Positions 1 to 62,294 of a stretch of 64,000 bases of DNA are shown piece after piece. The stretch is from Verrucomicrobiia bacterium (GTDB lineage Bacteria > Verrucomicrobiota > Verrucomicrobiia > Limisphaerales > UBA11358): assembly GCA_036498725.1 (NCBI GenBank), contig DASYEY010000126.1, positions 3,089-67,088 on the forward strand, read 5' to 3'. The translations under genes were made by a program, and so were the position numbers. Every line of letters starts with the position of its first letter. Within the stretch, counting starts at the first letter, position 1. The notes beneath the pieces are model-generated. The model was not told where the DNA came from. It was given only the letters and a program-made list of their open reading frames with translations, and did not search any database.

Positions 1-1443
1 TATTTGGGCACAAAATATTATCCGTTCACCATCAGCCAGTCGCCTCAGGATGTGACCACCAACCAAGGAACGACGGCAACCTTCACGGTTGTGGCCAATC
101 AAGGCAGCACGCATTTCAATTATCAATGGCAGGAAAATTCCACGAATATTCCCGGTGCCACTGGCGCCTCCTATACCACGCCGATTCTGGCGCCGACCGA
201 TTCGGGCGAGATATTTGATGTGCTCATCAGTGTCCCGGGACTCGCCACCAATGTGAGCAGTTCGGCGACATTGACAGTGAATAATGTGCCGCCGACGGTT
301 GCTGTGATCGGTGAACCGGTCTGGAGCCAGACCAATATCGTGGTCATTTTTTCCGAAGCGGTAACTCCGGCTACGGCCACAATCGCCGCGAATTATTCGT
401 TGGATAATGGTGCAACTGTCCTTTCCGCGGCGATGGGTGACACGCCAAACGAAGTTATCTTGACCACCGCGGTTTTAACTCCTGGCACGGTTTACACGGT
501 GACCGTCCAAAACGTAAATGACCAGTTCGGTAATACGATCTCAACGGCTTCGATTCCGGCGGGTATTTATCCGGCGTCGGTCGCCCTGTGGGTCAAGGCG
601 GATGCCGGAGTCGTCGCGGACGCAAGCGGAGTGAGCCAATGGAATGATCTTTCCGGCAATGGCAATAACTTTTTGCAATCATTCGGACCGCCGTTCGAAC
701 CGCAGATCATTGCCAATGCCATTAATGGTTTGCCGGCAATCCGCTTTAATGCCGCCGATGAGACATTCATGTCGGCAAATTCATCGCCCACGCTCGCCAT
801 CACCGGCGACATGACCATTCTGGCGGTGGCCAACTTTGCGACGTTGACGGGTAATACCAATGGAATGATTGTCTCAAAGACATCGGCGAATCTTCCGGCG
901 CCCTATGACTATTATGTCCGGCCCGGACAGGTGCAATTTTATCGGGGCAATGGAACGGTGAACGGTCTGGTTAATTCGACCGCTGTACCGTCGGTCGGTG
1001 TTCCTCATCTGCTGGATGTCACCATGCGCGGCAACACGGTAACACATCGTTTGGATGGCCGGGCCAATGGCAGCGGCAACCTGGCCACGACCATCGGTGA
1101 CAATGGAAACAGCTTATATATTGGCACCCGCGAAGATGGCACCAGCCGTTTGAATGGCGATTTGGCGGAACTCATCATCATCGGAGCGAGCATTTCCACC
1201 AATGACCTTGCCGCGTTGGAGAATTATCTGGGAACCAAATATCAACTGCAAATCGGCCCGGTGTCGGCACCCATCAGCATTACCAACTTAGGCAACAACC
1301 AGCTGCAATTGAATTGGACGGGCGGCACCTTGCAAGCCGCTGCCACTGTGGCCGGGCCTTACGTTGACATCAGCAGTGCCGTTGCCCCTTACACCGTGCT
1401 CACCACCAATGCACAGCAATTTTACCGGGTGCGGGAAAACTGA
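1..1443 (+). CDS. Secreted Ig-like + LamG (concanavalin-A-like lectin) domain protein; 5' end truncated by the window edge
   Basis: The frame is open from the window edge; the track's first codon at 4 is TTG and is not a credible start. Ig-like segment 'FNYQWQENSTNIPGATGASYTTP'. SbsA-Ig-like segment 'PPTVAVIGEPVW...TVYTVTVQNVNDQFGN'. LamG_3-type signature 'WNDLSGNGNNF' and 'SLYIGTREDG'. Ends in a ~60-aa module '...LQLNWTGGTLQAAATVAGPY...QQFYRVREN'. Confidence 0.7.
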   Translation, partial: YLGTKYYPFTISQSPQDVTTNQGTTATFTVVANQGSTHFNYQWQENSTNIPGATGASYTTPILAPTDSGEIFDVLISVPGLATNVSSSATLTVNNVPPTVAVIGEPVWSQTNIVVIFSEAVTPATATIAANYSLDNGATVLSAAMGDTPNEVILTTAVLTPGTVYTVTVQNVNDQFGNTISTASIPAGIYPASVALWVKADAGVVADASGVSQWNDLSGNGNNFLQSFGPPFEPQIIANAINGLPAIRFNAADETFMSANSSPTLAITGDMTILAVANFATLTGNTNGMIVSKTSANLPAPYDYYVRPGQVQFYRGNGTVNGLVNSTAVPSVGVPHLLDVTMRGNTVTHRLDGRANGSGNLATTIGDNGNSLYIGTREDGTSRLNGDLAELIIIGASISTNDLAALENYLGTKYQLQIGPVSAPISITNLGNNQLQLNWTGGTLQAAATVAGPYVDISSAVAPYTVLTTNAQQFYRVREN

Positions 1444-8119: not shown

Positions 8120-8230
8120 TTTTCAACTAATAATCTCAATCCCATTGCTTGAAAGAAGCGATGGGATTTTCATTTAGGGTCTTTTTCTCAATTTTGTGGC
8201 GCGCTTTTGTAGTCGGATATTCTTTTTCAC

Positions 8231-8283
8231 CGCCTGACGCTGCGCTCGGCGACGATTTTGGCCGCAGCACAGCCAAAGCCACC
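8231..8283 (+). repeat. Intergenic ~52-nt hairpin repeat, family B, copy 1
   Basis: 'CGCCTGACGCTGCGCTCGGCGACGATTTTGGCCGCAGCACAGCCAAAGCCAC'. Near-identical copies lie at 59661-59713 (same orientation) and 55750-55801 (reverse complement). Contains complementary arms GCTGCGC/GCGCAGC and CTTTGGC/GCCAAAG. Confidence 0.85.
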
Positions 8284-8362
8284 GGTTGCGCCACATGCCT
8301 TGACACTTTCCCGGCCTTTAGGATTGCGGTAATCTGTCTTCATTCAATTCCGTCTGATTTGG

Positions 8363-55749: not shown

Positions 55750-55801
55750 GTGGCTTTGGCTGCGCTGCGGCCAAAGTCGTCGCCGAGCGCAGCGTCAGGC
55801 G
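55750..55801 (-). repeat. Family B hairpin repeat, copy 2 (reverse-complement orientation)
   Basis: The reverse complement reads 'CGCCTGACGCTGCGCTCGGCGACGACTTTGGCCGCAGCGCAGCCAAAGCCAC'. Confidence 0.85.
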
Positions 55802-56006
55802 CCGAAATGTTGTGGGTCCAACTGCCACGAAATCGTCCTCGTGCTCATCGTCGCCCTCGCTCTCGCCCGCTGGTGAAAATTCGAGGACGAGGGCGAGGAC
55901 GACGATGAGGATGAACTGGATGTTAAAACTGATTGTTCAGGCACGCTTTCAGCAATTCAGGGAGAGCGTGTCCTGCCGTTTATAAACTGAGTTCCCGCGA
56001 TTTTTC

Positions 56007-57443: not shown

Positions 57444-59504
57444 GTGCTGCCGCTTAACAAAATTGAATTAGCTCTGCAAACTGCCGTCCGCGAAATTTTG
57501 CCGGACGCCGATGTTTCTACCATTTTAGTTCGTCCATGTGACCCGAAATTTGGTGATTACCAAAGCAATGCGCTCATGTCGCTTGCAAAAATTTACAAAC
57601 GTAATCCACGTCAGCTAGCAGAAGAGGTGCTGGTGAAACTAAACGTGGAACATGTTTGTGAAAAACCGGAAATCGCGGGTGCCGGCTTCCTGAATTTCCG
57701 ATTGAAAAAAGCGGTGCTTGCGCAAACGCTCGAATCGGCCATGCGTGATGAGCATTTATTTTTTACTAAAACAGCAAAACCGAAAACGATCATCATTGAT
57801 TTCAGTTCGCCCAATGTCGCCAAACCGATGCACGTCGGTCATATCCGCAGCACGGGTATTGGCGACGCGCTGCAGCGTATGTTGCGGCTGCTGGGACACA
57901 AGGTTGTTTCCGATAACCATATCGGCGACTGGGGCACGCAGTTCGGAAAATTACTTCTTGGCTGGAAACAGATTTTGGACCGTGAGGCGCTCAATCGTGA
58001 CGCCATTGCAGAACTAGAGTGGCTTTATAAAGTTGTAAATTTTTGCAGTGATATTCCGAGGCATGAAGCTGCTGAATTGCATAATTTTCTTAAAGCAGTA
58101 AAGAGTATAAAAACATTAGAGGCAAAATGGTGGAATGAGGTTCGCAGATTGCCGATCGATGGATTTGAAACCCTTTGTAAAGTGGGACAAACTCCTGATT
58201 CGTCATCGACACCTAGAGATAAAATTTTCAAAACTTTCCTGAATCAGTTGTGGAAAATAGGCTTAGTAGATAAAAAATCAAAAATTCTAGTTCCAAAAAA
58301 TAAAGCAGAACGCTTATTGAAATTTTTAATTTTTTGCAGTTCATCGAAGATCGACTTAATTGATTTGGCTCGAGAAGAATTAGTTAACCTACAAAACGGC
58401 GGAGCTGAAAACATTTCTATTTGGAGAGAGATGATTCATCTCTCCCAAATCCAGTTTGACACAATCTACGATCAACTTGGCGTGAAGTTTAATTTCGCGC
58501 TTGGTGAAAGCTTTTACAATCCATGGCTAGGTGAAGTTGTTGTGGAATTGCTCACGCGAGGCATTGCCCGCGAAAGCGAAGGTGCGGTGGGTGTGTTCAG
58601 CGATGGCTCCCTACCTCCGAAAGATGACCCGTTTCTTGTGAGCCGCGACGATGAATGGGTGTCTGATCCCGCATTAGTGCGTAAGAGTGATGGCGGTTTC
58701 AATTACATGACCACTGACTTGGCAACGATTGATTTTCGACTCAAAGTATGGTCGCCGGACGAAATCGTCTATGTAGTGGATGATAGGCAATCAGGCCATT
58801 TCAAAAAACTTTTTTTCACTTTTGCACGTTGGAAACCAAATAGTTTCAAAAAAACAAAACTTGTTCACGTTGGTTTTGGAAAAATTATGGGCGACGATGG
58901 CAAGCCATTTAAAACGCGCTCTGGAGATACTGTAAAACTTGGTGAATTACTCAATGAATCTGTGGATCGAGCTTTTAAAAATGTATCCGAAAAAAATCCA
59001 GAGATACCCCAATTTCAACGTAAAGAAATCGCTCGTATCGTGGGCATTGGCGCAGTGAAGTACGCCGACCTGTTGCCCAACCGCCAAAGTGATTACATTT
59101 TCAATTGGGACAAGATGCTCGCGTCGCAAGGCAACACCGCCCCCTATTTGCAATATGCCTACGCCCGCATCCGTAGTATTTTTCGTAAAGCGGGCAAAAA
59201 TAGGATTCAGAATTTAGAGTCCAAAATCCAGGTGGAGGCGCCGGAGGAAATCGCGCTGGCGAAATATTTGTTGAACTTTGGCCTGACGCTCGAAGCGGCG
59301 GCGGAGGAATTCCGCCCGAATTATCTGTGCAATTACCTCTTTGAACTAGCCGTTCATTTTTCACGTTTCTTCGAAAATTGCCCGGTGCTAAAAGCCGAGG
59401 ATGAAGCTACGCGCCAATCCCGTCTGGCCCTGTGCGATTTGACGGCGCGGGTTTTGAAACAAGGGCTGGCGACGCTTGGTATCGAGACAGTGGAACAGAT
59501 GTAA
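57444..59504 (+). CDS. argS: Arginine--tRNA ligase carrying a 97-codon AT-rich insertion
   Basis: 'SSPNVAKPMHVGHIRS' (HIGH). 'GDWGTQFG'. 'PFKTRSGDTVKL'. 'GAVKYADLLPNR'. 'GNTAPYLQYAYARI'. DALR-type C-terminus ending in M. 686 aa, about 100 aa longer than typical bacterial ArgRS. Confidence 0.9.
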   Translation: MLPLNKIELALQTAVREILPDADVSTILVRPCDPKFGDYQSNALMSLAKIYKRNPRQLAEEVLVKLNVEHVCEKPEIAGAGFLNFRLKKAVLAQTLESAMRDEHLFFTKTAKPKTIIIDFSSPNVAKPMHVGHIRSTGIGDALQRMLRLLGHKVVSDNHIGDWGTQFGKLLLGWKQILDREALNRDAIAELEWLYKVVNFCSDIPRHEAAELHNFLKAVKSIKTLEAKWWNEVRRLPIDGFETLCKVGQTPDSSSTPRDKIFKTFLNQLWKIGLVDKKSKILVPKNKAERLLKFLIFCSSSKIDLIDLAREELVNLQNGGAENISIWREMIHLSQIQFDTIYDQLGVKFNFALGESFYNPWLGEVVVELLTRGIARESEGAVGVFSDGSLPPKDDPFLVSRDDEWVSDPALVRKSDGGFNYMTTDLATIDFRLKVWSPDEIVYVVDDRQSGHFKKLFFTFARWKPNSFKKTKLVHVGFGKIMGDDGKPFKTRSGDTVKLGELLNESVDRAFKNVSEKNPEIPQFQRKEIARIVGIGAVKYADLLPNRQSDYIFNWDKMLASQGNTAPYLQYAYARIRSIFRKAGKNRIQNLESKIQVEAPEEIALAKYLLNFGLTLEAAAEEFRPNYLCNYLFELAVHFSRFFENCPVLKAEDEATRQSRLALCDLTARVLKQGLATLGIETVEQM
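58050..58340 (+). other. In-frame 291-bp AT-rich insertion in argS, delimited by 13-bp direct repeats
   Basis: 'AAATTTTTGCAGT' (58037-58049) and 'AATTTTTTGCAGT' (58328-58340), 12/13 identical, offset 291 nt. My hand count gives 99 G+C in the 291 nt (~34%). Confidence 0.55.
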
Positions 59505-59660
59505 TGCCGGTTTGGCGGTCGTTGCCTGCGTTCGGTGCTTTGGTCTGGTTTAGGGCGCGTTTTCAAACTTTAGCATAGGTGGTGGGTTGCGCTGCGACCC
59601 CTTATGACTGCGTAGCAATCCCTTTGTGGTGTGGTTGGTTACCGGACGTTTTCTTTTCGT

Positions 59661-59713
59661 CGCCTGACGCTGCGCTCGGCGACGACTTTGGCCGCAGCGC
59701 AGCCAAAGCCACC
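59661..59713 (+). repeat. Family B hairpin repeat, copy 3
   Basis: 'CGCCTGACGCTGCGCTCGGCGACGACTTTGGCCGCAGCGCAGCCAAAGCCACC'. Flanking similarity to copy 1 extends about 25 nt on each side. Confidence 0.85.
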
Positions 59714-61390: not shown

Positions 61391-61565
61391 AGGCGGAGGT
61401 GGCAACTACTCGTAAAATTTCGTTGCGCTTTTGTAACAAAAATTAATCACTAATTTTGCTTGAAATTTAGGCAGTGATGTATAATCTCAAGACGAATTAA
61501 GGAGTAATGACGGAAGCGGTAGTTGATAGATCTAATCAGGGAAACATAAAATTAATACCATCTAC

Positions 61566-62294
61566 ATGAAAAAAGCCTTCATTTTCAATTTGATTACCAT
61601 TGCAACTTTGATTTGCAGTCAATCCAGCAAAGCAGGTACTACCAATACAGTTTATTGGAATTTTAATACTGCCGCCCCAACTTCTGGAGTCTTTTCTGGG
61701 CTGACTGTTTCTTCCTTGAGTCAGGGCAATAATCATGGCACGACCACATTGATTAGCACTACATCAGCTTCATCTGGCTACACTACTGCCGCTGGTTTTA
61801 CTGCCAGCGGAACTGGTAATGCTGGTGCAGCTGTTTTTACCAACGCTCCGTTCAGTACCGCCACTTCGACCTATTTTCAATTTGATGTTTCTCTCTCAGC
61901 CGCCGCTGGTGCAGCGTATCAAGTCAGCCAAATTTACGATATTTCATTGGGGGCGCGTGCAACGTCAACTGGCCCGCAATTGCTTTCATTATATTCCAGT
62001 ACGGATGATTTTACTTCGGATTTTACTTCCATAGCTTCGCTATCAATCCCTAATAATTCTGCTTGGGTGGCTCGTGACTTTTCCAACATTGCGATTAGTC
62101 TTCCCGAAGATGGCAGCACCGTGTCATTTCGAATTTACGCGTCAAATGGTGTGGGAAACGCAACGTCGGGCACAGCTAATTTGCGTATTGATGACTTAAG
62201 TTTTACCGTTTCCTCTGTTCCCGAACCTTCCACCATTGCCTTGGCAACGATGGGTGGTCTCGCCTGTTTGATGGCCGTGCGTCGGAAACGTTGA
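61566..62294 (+). CDS. PEP-CTERM sorting-domain protein
   Basis: Signal peptide 'MKKAFIFNLITIATLICSQSSKA'. C-terminal 'VPEPSTIALATMGGLACLMAVRRKR' (PEP motif + TM + basic tail). The gene is visibly more AT-rich than its neighbours. Confidence 0.85.
   Translation: MKKAFIFNLITIATLICSQSSKAGTTNTVYWNFNTAAPTSGVFSGLTVSSLSQGNNHGTTTLISTTSASSGYTTAAGFTASGTGNAGAAVFTNAPFSTATSTYFQFDVSLSAAAGAAYQVSQIYDISLGARATSTGPQLLSLYSSTDDFTSDFTSIASLSIPNNSAWVARDFSNIAISLPEDGSTVSFRIYASNGVGNATSGTANLRIDDLSFTVSSVPEPSTIALATMGGLACLMAVRRKR

Follow-up and report, generated by a model that had tools for sequence, protein, structure and literature searches.

The window, by which is meant the whole 64-kb stretch of DNA that was analysed, contains argS, the gene for arginine--tRNA ligase (ArgRS), within which lies a run of 97 additional codons bounded by a direct repeat (Table 1). 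The argS product possesses all three of the Pfam domains Arg_tRNA_synt_N, tRNA-synt_1d and DALR_1 (PF00750+PF05746+PF03485), gives a full-length match of 480 bits to the equivalog model TIGR00456 (cutoff 261.65), and matches ArgRS in the PDB at E=5e-138. The gene is at its native, syntenic locus, with an upstream order of PRT, membrane protein, PTS-EIIA and argS that is common to loci L004, L005, L007, L008, L032 and L041, and this conserved synteny rules out transfer of the whole gene. It is assumed here that argS is single-copy in this genome. Inverted repeats of 58 bp are found on either side of argS and were considered in relation to the insert, but they represent a dispersed intergenic repeat that is separate from it.

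Table 1. Features of argS and its insert, in positions of the window.
Feature	Position	Strand	Evidence
argS, arginine--tRNA ligase, 686 aa, GTG start	57444..59504	+	ORF, Pfam, TIGR00456, PDB, synteny
Part of the catalytic domain equivalent to Ins1 (E. coli residues 164-221 via alignment)	57936..58400	+	HMMER to 4oby
Low-GC3 tract (0.13-0.47); contains the insert, overruns it on both sides, peak of window-specific amino-acid divergence	57954..58520	+	
Left copy of flanking direct repeat, 21-nt extended, 13-nt core 58037-58049	58029..58049	+	
97-codon in-frame insert, 291 nt, 34.0% G+C, orphan peptide DIPRHEAA...KFLIFCS	58050..58340	+	
Right copy of flanking direct repeat, 21-nt extended, 13-nt core 58328-58340	58320..58340	+	
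Second tract of low GC3 (0.20-0.30), within conserved sequence of the ArgRS core	58764..59003	+	

The insert is real, in frame and free of stops. Its limits are ambiguous owing to the repeat, such that 58037-58327 is an equally valid placement. Frame 0 of the 291 nt encodes a 97-residue peptide (residues 203-299 of the protein), whereas the other five frames hold between 1 and 12 stops each, and an open frame 0 arose in only 0.021% of 200,000 shuffles of the insert (P ~2e-4). Because the frame is open at such odds and the alternatives are rich in stops, the segment appears to be translated as part of ArgRS. The peptide contains 14% Lys with a net charge of about +8; it is basic and predicted to be mostly helical. 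When the protein is aligned with E. coli ArgRS (4oby) by HMMER, the match covers query residues 27-197 and 306-686, leaving around 97 residues extra, and deletion of the 97 codons restores the spacing of the E. coli enzyme and of all 119 nearest homologues, with 24 residues then separating the LYK and LQ landmarks as in those homologues. The DNA itself is present in two assemblies, an NCBI contig (98 kb) and a JGI contig (57.8 kb), which are 100% identical over 16,557 bp, insert included.

The repeat that bounds the insert consists of AAATTTTTGCAGT (58037-58049) and AATTTTTTGCAGT (58328-58340), which lie 291 nt apart and are identical at 12 of 13 positions; when extended to 58029-58049 and 58320-58340 the two copies agree at 18 of 21. 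At the protein level they read EWLYKVVNFCS on the left and ERLLKFLIFCS on the right, where the left copy encodes, as KVVNFCS, the end of the native helix before the loop and the right copy encodes KFLIFCS. Among 20,000 composition-matched shuffles, 0.02% produced a repeat this good (12/13 or better) close to the edges of the gap and spaced in frame, with edges that were partly defined post hoc, and the flanking repeat is unlikely to have arisen by chance. As regards a target-site duplication, the direct repeat is present (12/13, or 18/21) and the corresponding target in relatives has diverged. An empty-site allele was sought in metagenomes and none was found, a weak negative since it would require a near-identical strain.

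An earlier sequence-only reading of this DNA had proposed that a 291-bp, AT-rich element flanked by 13-bp direct repeats had entered argS in frame, and most of its description was borne out. The coordinates and spacing of the repeats, the 97-residue stop-free peptide, the recovery of the E. coli spacing upon removal of the insert and the low G+C content (99 of 291 nt, or 34.0%, against 46.8% in the rest of argS and 54.0% in the window) all agree with what was measured. Its further remark that argS is itself somewhat AT-richer than its neighbours was right in direction and understated in extent, as GC3 falls to 0.13-0.47 over ~57950-58520 and drops to the level of the insert once more in a second tract. 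The low GC3 overruns the insert by approximately 100 nt upstream and 200 nt downstream, whilst GC3 stays flat at 0.65-0.85 along the argS genes of relatives and lies between 0.58 and 0.71 for other genes in the window. Low G+C is therefore not specific to the insert, given that the second tract lies within conserved ArgRS core sequence, and the foreign composition put forward as evidence of an insertion carries little weight, for low GC3 runs into conserved argS to either side of the insert and appears again in another part of the gene. Local GC3 dips are also seen in two other Verrucomicrobia, L003 and L010, around inserts of their own.

The insert falls within insertion domain 1 (Ins1), which in ArgRS corresponds to connective peptide 1. 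In the E. coli enzyme Ins1 spans residues 164-221, of which 178-187 and 203-204 are disordered in the crystal (PMC3956977), and the insert maps by inference from the HMMER alignment to 4oby to around residues 197-207. It is likely, then, that the insert sits in a flexible, insertion-tolerant surface loop, which is what the sequence-only reading had supposed. AlphaFold models based on 11- and 120-sequence alignments were both poor, with a mean pLDDT of 51.5 and 56.8, respectively, with values of 31-66 over the insert. The remainder of the protein looks like an ordinary, functional ArgRS. Of the 370 columns conserved in at least 97% of relatives, 350 are kept and the HVGH motif is intact; 11 of the 20 changed columns group at residues 193-344, around the insert, and the changes beyond the Ins1 hairpin are conservative. 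The excess-divergence ratio reaches 3.05 immediately downstream of the insert. This pattern shows that the rest of the enzyme has remained constrained while the residues adjoining the insert have been remodelled.

Comparison with relatives indicates that the insert is lineage-specific. It is absent from all 119 nearest homologues (575-603 aa) and from all 80 GTDB loci compared, and was itself sampled from a single population; the orthologue alignment called for by the sequence-only reading thus revealed no homologous segment shared at this position. The length of the site is nevertheless variable. The distance from HIGDWG to GESFY is 92 residues in most Verrucomicrobia and 97 in three; it reaches 111 in L010, 118 in L003 and 146-175 in 37 Planctomycete loci, compared with 189 in the window ArgRS. 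This corresponds to 54-83 extra residues in the Planctomycetes and to 26 and 19 in the Verrucomicrobia L003 and L010, respectively. The Planctomycete insert (e.g. L015, L018, L040) has an insertion point identical to that of the window insert, between LY(K/R)xVN and the (E)LxxLQ/H-xGD helix, and is likewise of comparable size, rich in charged residues and predicted to be helical. Unlike the window insert, it is conserved across its phylum, has a normal GC3 and carries no flanking repeat. No sequence relation was detected between the window insert and those of the Planctomycetes (phmmer E>0.8), L003 or L010. The site is a recurrent length-variable spot, at which several PVC lineages independently carry unrelated inserts. 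Lineage-specific insertions in Ins1 and the connective peptides of class I synthetases are among the closest parallels, in that they concern the same enzyme, the same domain and the loop that is disordered in E. coli, and are in frame, apparently translated and tolerated; the window insert differs from the other Ins1 inserts in being an AT-rich orphan, the longest seen at the site, bounded by a direct repeat of 13-21 nt and so far known from one population.

Searches for relatives of the insert were extensive. No second copy was found in the 64-kb window, in a further 5.5 kb of the same genome (L081; ~70 kb of the genome covered overall), or in 80 related loci (~800 kb), and there were none in 241 M metagenome records, 2.9 M viral contigs, or plasmid and phage collections. 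The peptide had no match in Pfam (E<=1), PHROGs, NCBIfam or the PDB. Protein searches also returned 0 matches, both by exhaustive HMMER against 1.84 billion representatives and by a word-indexed search of 5.8 billion proteins, although each is a weak negative for copies embedded in ArgRS, as the window's own protein was missed as well. To cover such copies, contig scans and a flanked query were employed, and the insert with its flanks retrieved no insert-bearing homologue among proteins. The stop-free segments of the other frames have no Pfam matches, and the idea that the insert is a gene fragment captured in some other frame or orientation was rejected. A tandem duplication of adjacent argS was rejected too, with nucleotide identities in register of 31% and 24% and Smith-Waterman z-scores of 0.3-0.9.

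These results bear directly upon the possibility that the insert is a small non-autonomous mobile element, similar to a Rickettsia palindromic element (RPE) or a MITE, that entered a tolerant surface loop in frame with a 13-bp target-site duplication. RPEs are ~150 bp in length and palindromic; their families have conserved peptides, and a genome carries tens of copies. Like RPEs and intragenic MITEs, the insert is a short piece of DNA lying in frame in a housekeeping gene, to which it adds a peptide without destroying the protein, and it has a direct repeat exactly at its edges, as expected of a target-site duplication and unlikely by chance; its low G+C and preserved reading frame point the same way, and in-frame fusions made by intragenic MITEs and RPEs are documented (PMC10969869). 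However, its 291 nt make it roughly double the length of an RPE, no palindromic, hairpin-forming structure was found in it, and its RNA folds less well than shuffled versions (MFE z = +1.53). Its ends lack terminal inverted repeats, the only inverted matches being weak, AT-rich and away from the termini, the low GC3 is not confined to it and no second copy exists anywhere that was searched, from the window to the protein collections. The insert is not supported as a repeated mobile element, and the analogy with Rickettsia palindromic elements drawn in the sequence-only reading does not hold. That reading had staked the mobile-element part of its proposal on additional copies or an insert polymorphism, and since neither was seen (one population sampled) this part is refuted on its own terms. 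A mobile origin is consequently judged to be unlikely. It is far less probable still that the segment is lost on the way to the mature enzyme, as an intron, as an intein or by ribosomal bypassing between matching flanking codons. The insert does interrupt an essential gene, and identical codons (TTT TGC AGT) at both edges resemble take-off and landing sites, but a spliced or bypassed segment needs no open frame, yet here the frame is open at odds of ~2e-4, there is no stable fold, and nothing in Rfam matches the insert at E<=1, group I and group II intron models included. A mini-intein would also interrupt an essential enzyme with an in-frame peptide followed by Cys or Ser. As the sequence-only reading had noted, though, intein hallmarks are missing: no Hint/intein domain is matched in Pfam (E<=1), the residues before the downstream Cys/Ser are I-F or F-C rather than His-Asn under any boundary that the repeat allows, and 97 residues is too short, mini-inteins being larger than this.

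An assembly artefact, in which a chimeric join placed unrelated AT-rich DNA into argS, would account for an insert that is unique and compositionally odd in a contig assembled from a metagenome. It is very improbable in view of the identical DNA in two different assemblies, the exact length of 97 stop-free codons (P ~2e-4), a 13-nt repeat that is shorter than the usual assembler k-mers and flanks that are likewise diverged and low in GC3. A more serious contender, albeit one that is still on the unlikely side, is that the whole low-GC3 patch (~57950-58520) was imported together with the insert by homologous recombination from an unsampled, lower-G+C member of the same clade, which would make the window argS a recombinational mosaic. 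Such an import would explain why GC3 is patchy in the window argS and flat in relatives and why window-specific amino-acid divergence peaks within the low-GC3 tracts, and L003 is mosaic-like around the same site. On the other hand, the best protein matches come from the same close clade for every patch, whether of low or normal GC3, an observation that also speaks against import of the patches from a different known lineage. Moreover, no insert-bearing donor was found, the GC3 dips around the L003 and L010 inserts hint at a local process, and recombination leaves the flanking repeat unexplained, merely moving the event to another lineage.

The insert is probably a lineage-specific, translated expansion of the Ins1 loop that arose when a single illegitimate insertion duplicated a short stretch of the target. 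Some 270-290 bp of AT-rich DNA would have entered the loop in a single event, duplicating 13-21 bp of the target, with a template switch, filler-DNA repair or a one-off transposition-like event as candidate routes. The position of the loop, projecting from the surface of the enzyme, may have allowed the insertion to survive, selection acting on the essential part of the gene further downstream would have kept the frame open since then, and the neighbouring hairpin could have adapted after the insertion. Two observations sit less easily with such a loop expansion: a target duplication of 13-21 bp is also expected from transposition, and low GC3 extending past the insert is not predicted by foreign DNA entering a native gene and could mean that the whole patch was imported.

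The insert reveals no new kind of genetic element and no new mechanism. It may be no more than neutral decoration, or it may contribute contacts to tRNA or a partner. A bolder suggestion, which is at present doubtful, is that the 97-residue segment is a newborn functional module, captured in one step (with the target duplication) from DNA lacking any detectable relative and selected as a basic helical appendage for tRNA or partner binding, and that it is one case of a recurring seeding of the Ins1 loop with AT-rich sequence in GC-rich PVC genomes; the idea of a recurring process comes from the same local GC3 dip in L003 and L010. Provided that it is kept in the active enzyme, the insert would offer a clean, datable case of an ancient essential enzyme gaining a peptide module, with a defined insertion point, a direct-repeat scar, adaptation in the residues nearby and, in sister lineages, unrelated inserts in parallel at the same loop. 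Should this be true, the gene would be of use in studying how tolerant the insertion domains of synthetases are and how orphan domains originate.

The open reading frame under study is unambiguously argS, with a product that contains the three ArgRS Pfam domains, scores 480 bits against TIGR00456 (cutoff 262) and matches E. coli ArgRS structures with E = 5e-138 (HMMER). The gene sits in its native genomic context: the order PRT, membrane protein, PTS-EIIA and argS is kept in six relatives. A dispersed, GC-rich, hairpin-forming intergenic repeat of 58–70 bp (CGCCTGACGCTGCGCTCGGCGACGAYTTTGGCCGCAGCRCAGCCAAAGCCAC) is present in three copies in the window (90–98% identity), two of which, inverted, flank the membrane-protein/PTS-EIIA/argS block; no copy was found in the 80 relatives' loci.

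The HMMER alignment pairs E. coli ArgRS with query residues 27–197 and 306–686, leaving ~97 residues without a match. The 13-nt direct repeats described in the sequence-only reading lie where it placed them, 291 nt apart and identical at 12 of 13 positions, and the match lengthens to 18 of 21 nt, which are read in the protein as EWLYKVVNFCS and ERLLKFLIFCS. That reading's hand count of 99 G+C (34.0%, compared with 54.0% for the window and 46.8% for argS outside the insert) was reproduced, as were its stop-free 97-residue peptide and the restored spacing on removal of these residues, which leaves 24 residues from LYK to LQ as in the nearest homologues. Among 20,000 composition-matched shuffles, 0.02% produced a match of 12/13 or better close to the edges of the gap and spaced in frame, the edges having been set in part with the repeat in view. 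A stop-free frame came up in 0.021% of 200,000 shuffles, while the remaining five frames of the insert hold 1–12 stops. The peptide is basic (14% Lys, net charge about +8) and is predicted, with low confidence, to be mostly helical in both structure predictions. At the sequence level, the insert and its flanking repeat are confirmed.

Coordinates, third-position G+C (GC3) and site lengths of the features discussed (window positions unless stated; spacing is HIGDWG-to-GESFY)
Feature	Position	Strand	Value
argS ORF	57444-59504	+	2,061 nt, GTG start, 686-aa product
Upstream repeat copy	58029-58049		
Downstream repeat copy	58320-58340		
argS GC3	aa 1-110		0.33-0.43
argS GC3	aa 111-170		0.60-0.73
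argS GC3, insert included	aa 171-360		0.13-0.47
argS GC3	aa 361-440		about 0.5
argS GC3	aa 441-520		0.20-0.30
argS GC3	aa 521-686		0.53-0.77
Main low-GC3 stretches of argS	57444-57770, 57954-58520, 58764-59003		
Dispersed intergenic repeat	8224-8293	+	
Dispersed intergenic repeat	55750-55807	-	
Dispersed intergenic repeat	59655-59712	+	
PEP-CTERM-type protein gene	61566-62294	+	GC3 0.39
Its upstream region	61400-61700		35% G+C
Planctomycete Ins1 insert in locus L015	ArgRS aa ~178-262		
Spacing, most Verrucomicrobia			92 aa
Spacing, L036, L041, L064			97 aa
Spacing, L010			111 aa
Spacing, L003			118 aa
Spacing, 37 Planctomycete loci			146-175 aa
Spacing, window			189 aa

The insert is carried by no other sampled sequence. 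The nearest homologues in a set of 5.8 billion proteins, 119 sequences from Verrucomicrobiota (74–79% identical, 575–603 aa), are all without it, and it occurs in none of 80 argS loci from GTDB species representatives, a set that leaves out the window's own genome. The peptide matched nothing in Pfam, PHROGs, NCBIfam or the PDB, and neither HMMER run exhaustively over 1.84 billion cluster representatives nor a word-indexed search of 5.8 billion proteins gave a hit. Both large searches also missed the window's own protein and are therefore blind to copies within ArgRS clusters, so the insert plus its flanks was used as query, which matched flanks only (coverage at most 45%). There was no match in 241 M metagenome records, IMG/VR, plasmids or phages, no second copy in the window, a further 5.5 kb from that genome or the ~800 kb covered by relatives' loci, and no precise empty-site allele in an exact search of metagenomes, which could detect one only in a near-identical strain. 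Several MAG records among the loci (L007, L013, L023, L036, L038 and L064) carry the titles Bifidobacteriaceae, Klebsiella, Akkermansia muciniphila, Acidoferrum, Nealsonbacteria or Haliangiales; their ArgRS is of Verrucomicrobia or Planctomycete type and some share the window's synteny, and because this conflicts with the titles, wrong labels or contamination of the bins are probable.

The insert falls at E. coli residues ~197–207 and replaces no native sequence. Insertion domain 1 (Ins1) of E. coli ArgRS spans residues 164–221, of which 178–187 and 203–204 are crystallographically invisible (PMC3956977), and the site is therefore a flexible loop of Ins1, which in ArgRS corresponds to connective peptide 1. 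Measured as HIGDWG-to-GESFY spacing, this is a recurrent length-variable spot across the PVC superphylum. No relation was detected between the window insert and those of the Planctomycetes, L003 and L010 (phmmer E > 0.8; hhalign confidence from the flanks alone), and the position is tolerant of insertions and has gained them repeatedly. The Planctomycete insert, a conserved, charged segment of 54–83 aa in the identical Ins1 loop (37 loci, including L015, L018, L019, L024 and L040), is K/E/A/Q-rich and helix-like and looks like a phylum-level signature; no published description was found in the literature searched. L003 (6001–7848; ArgRS aa ~160–280), among the closest GTDB relatives, is 78% identical C-terminally with 26 extra residues at the site, and its upstream flank (GMLICGYKHLLD..PVDELVRLYKK) resembles that of Planctomycetes, which suggests that its Ins1 is a mosaic. 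L010 (6001–7809) has 19 extra residues.

Judged by conservation, the window ArgRS looks functional: of 370 alignment columns with conservation of 97% or more among 119 relatives, it retains 350. Eleven of the 20 deviating columns are grouped around the insert at aa 193–344 and the remaining changes are conservative; in a leave-one-out control, such deviations averaged 2 and never exceeded 11. Window-specific divergence, relative to that among relatives, is greatest immediately after the insert (aa 301–330, ratio 3.05) and stands at 1.8 just ahead of it, and a loop that is near-invariant in relatives, AECDANPARLEEAK, reads FCSSSKIDLIDLAR. The Ins1 hairpin thus looks to have been remodelled along with the insertion.

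An assembly artefact is highly improbable as the source of the insert. Two assemblies yield the identical 686-aa protein, one on a 98,160-bp NCBI contig and one on a 57,795-bp JGI contig (sample 3300036781), and their DNA is 100% identical across 16,557 bp overlapping the window; these probably represent the same population and so are not fully independent, but a misjoin that happened once is improbable, and assembler k-mers are longer than a 13-nt repeat. Removal of the segment before the mature protein is still harder to credit. There is no Rfam match to indicate an intron, and an intein, of which the sequence-only reading had seen no hallmarks, is excluded by the lack of a Hint-domain match and of His-Asn and by a length below that of inteins. 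Ribosomal bypassing between identical flanking codons is conceivable, yet it would not need an open frame and the insert's frame is open. A tandem duplication was ruled out by comparison with neighbouring argS sequence, and a gene fragment read in another frame by the lack of Pfam hits for the stop-free segments of the other frames. A true mobile element is improbable. The proposed analogy with Rickettsia palindromic elements (RPEs) did not hold: these are palindromic, about 150 bp long and grouped into families that share conserved peptides, and R. conorii carries 44 insertions (PMC10969869), whereas the insert has 291 nt, no terminal inverted repeats and one copy found, and its RNA folds more weakly than shuffles (z = +1.53). 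Structure, and copy number in the DNA searched, speak against both a MITE and an RPE.

Foreign composition had also been claimed. The insert is indeed low in G+C, but conserved ArgRS sequence on both sides, and once more from 400 nt farther downstream, is equally AT-shifted, which weakens the argument. The gene as a whole is an outlier (GC3 0.46; other window genes 0.58–0.71) and contains the lowest-G+C kilobase of all 64 kb (58001–59000), while GC3 in six relatives is flat at 0.65–0.85. The only other clearly low-GC3 gene encodes a PEP-CTERM-type protein and is preceded by an AT-rich intergenic stretch. Import of patches from a different known lineage is unsupported, since synteny is native and the nearest protein relatives of all patches, whether their GC3 is low or normal, belong to the same clade; recombinational import of the low-GC3 patch together with the insert from an unsampled low-G+C clade member is doubtful. 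Around their own inserts L003 and L010 fall to GC3 0.27–0.40 in genes of ~60% G+C, whereas GC3 is normal in the old Planctomycete insert; the patchiness may represent local AT-drift around a structural variant or import from such a clade member.

The in-frame 291-nt segment thus has a non-random edge repeat of 13–21 nt, occupies an insertion-tolerant site and has maintained its frame. It probably arose when one illegitimate insertion, accompanied by a short target duplication, placed it in a surface loop, and its neighbours adapted afterwards. One such event, whether template switching, filler-DNA repair or one-off transposition-like insertion, would have duplicated a short stretch of target, and its product would have persisted because the loop lies at the surface and an out-of-frame insert would be lethal, with the adjoining helices adapting later. 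Any part it may play in binding tRNA or a partner is speculative. Synthetase insertion domains are well known to carry idiosyncratic insertions, and an insertion scar at a recurrent hot spot is neat to specialists rather than very surprising; the insert represents a new, unusually long orphan case with an apparent scar in one uncultured Verrucomicrobial population.
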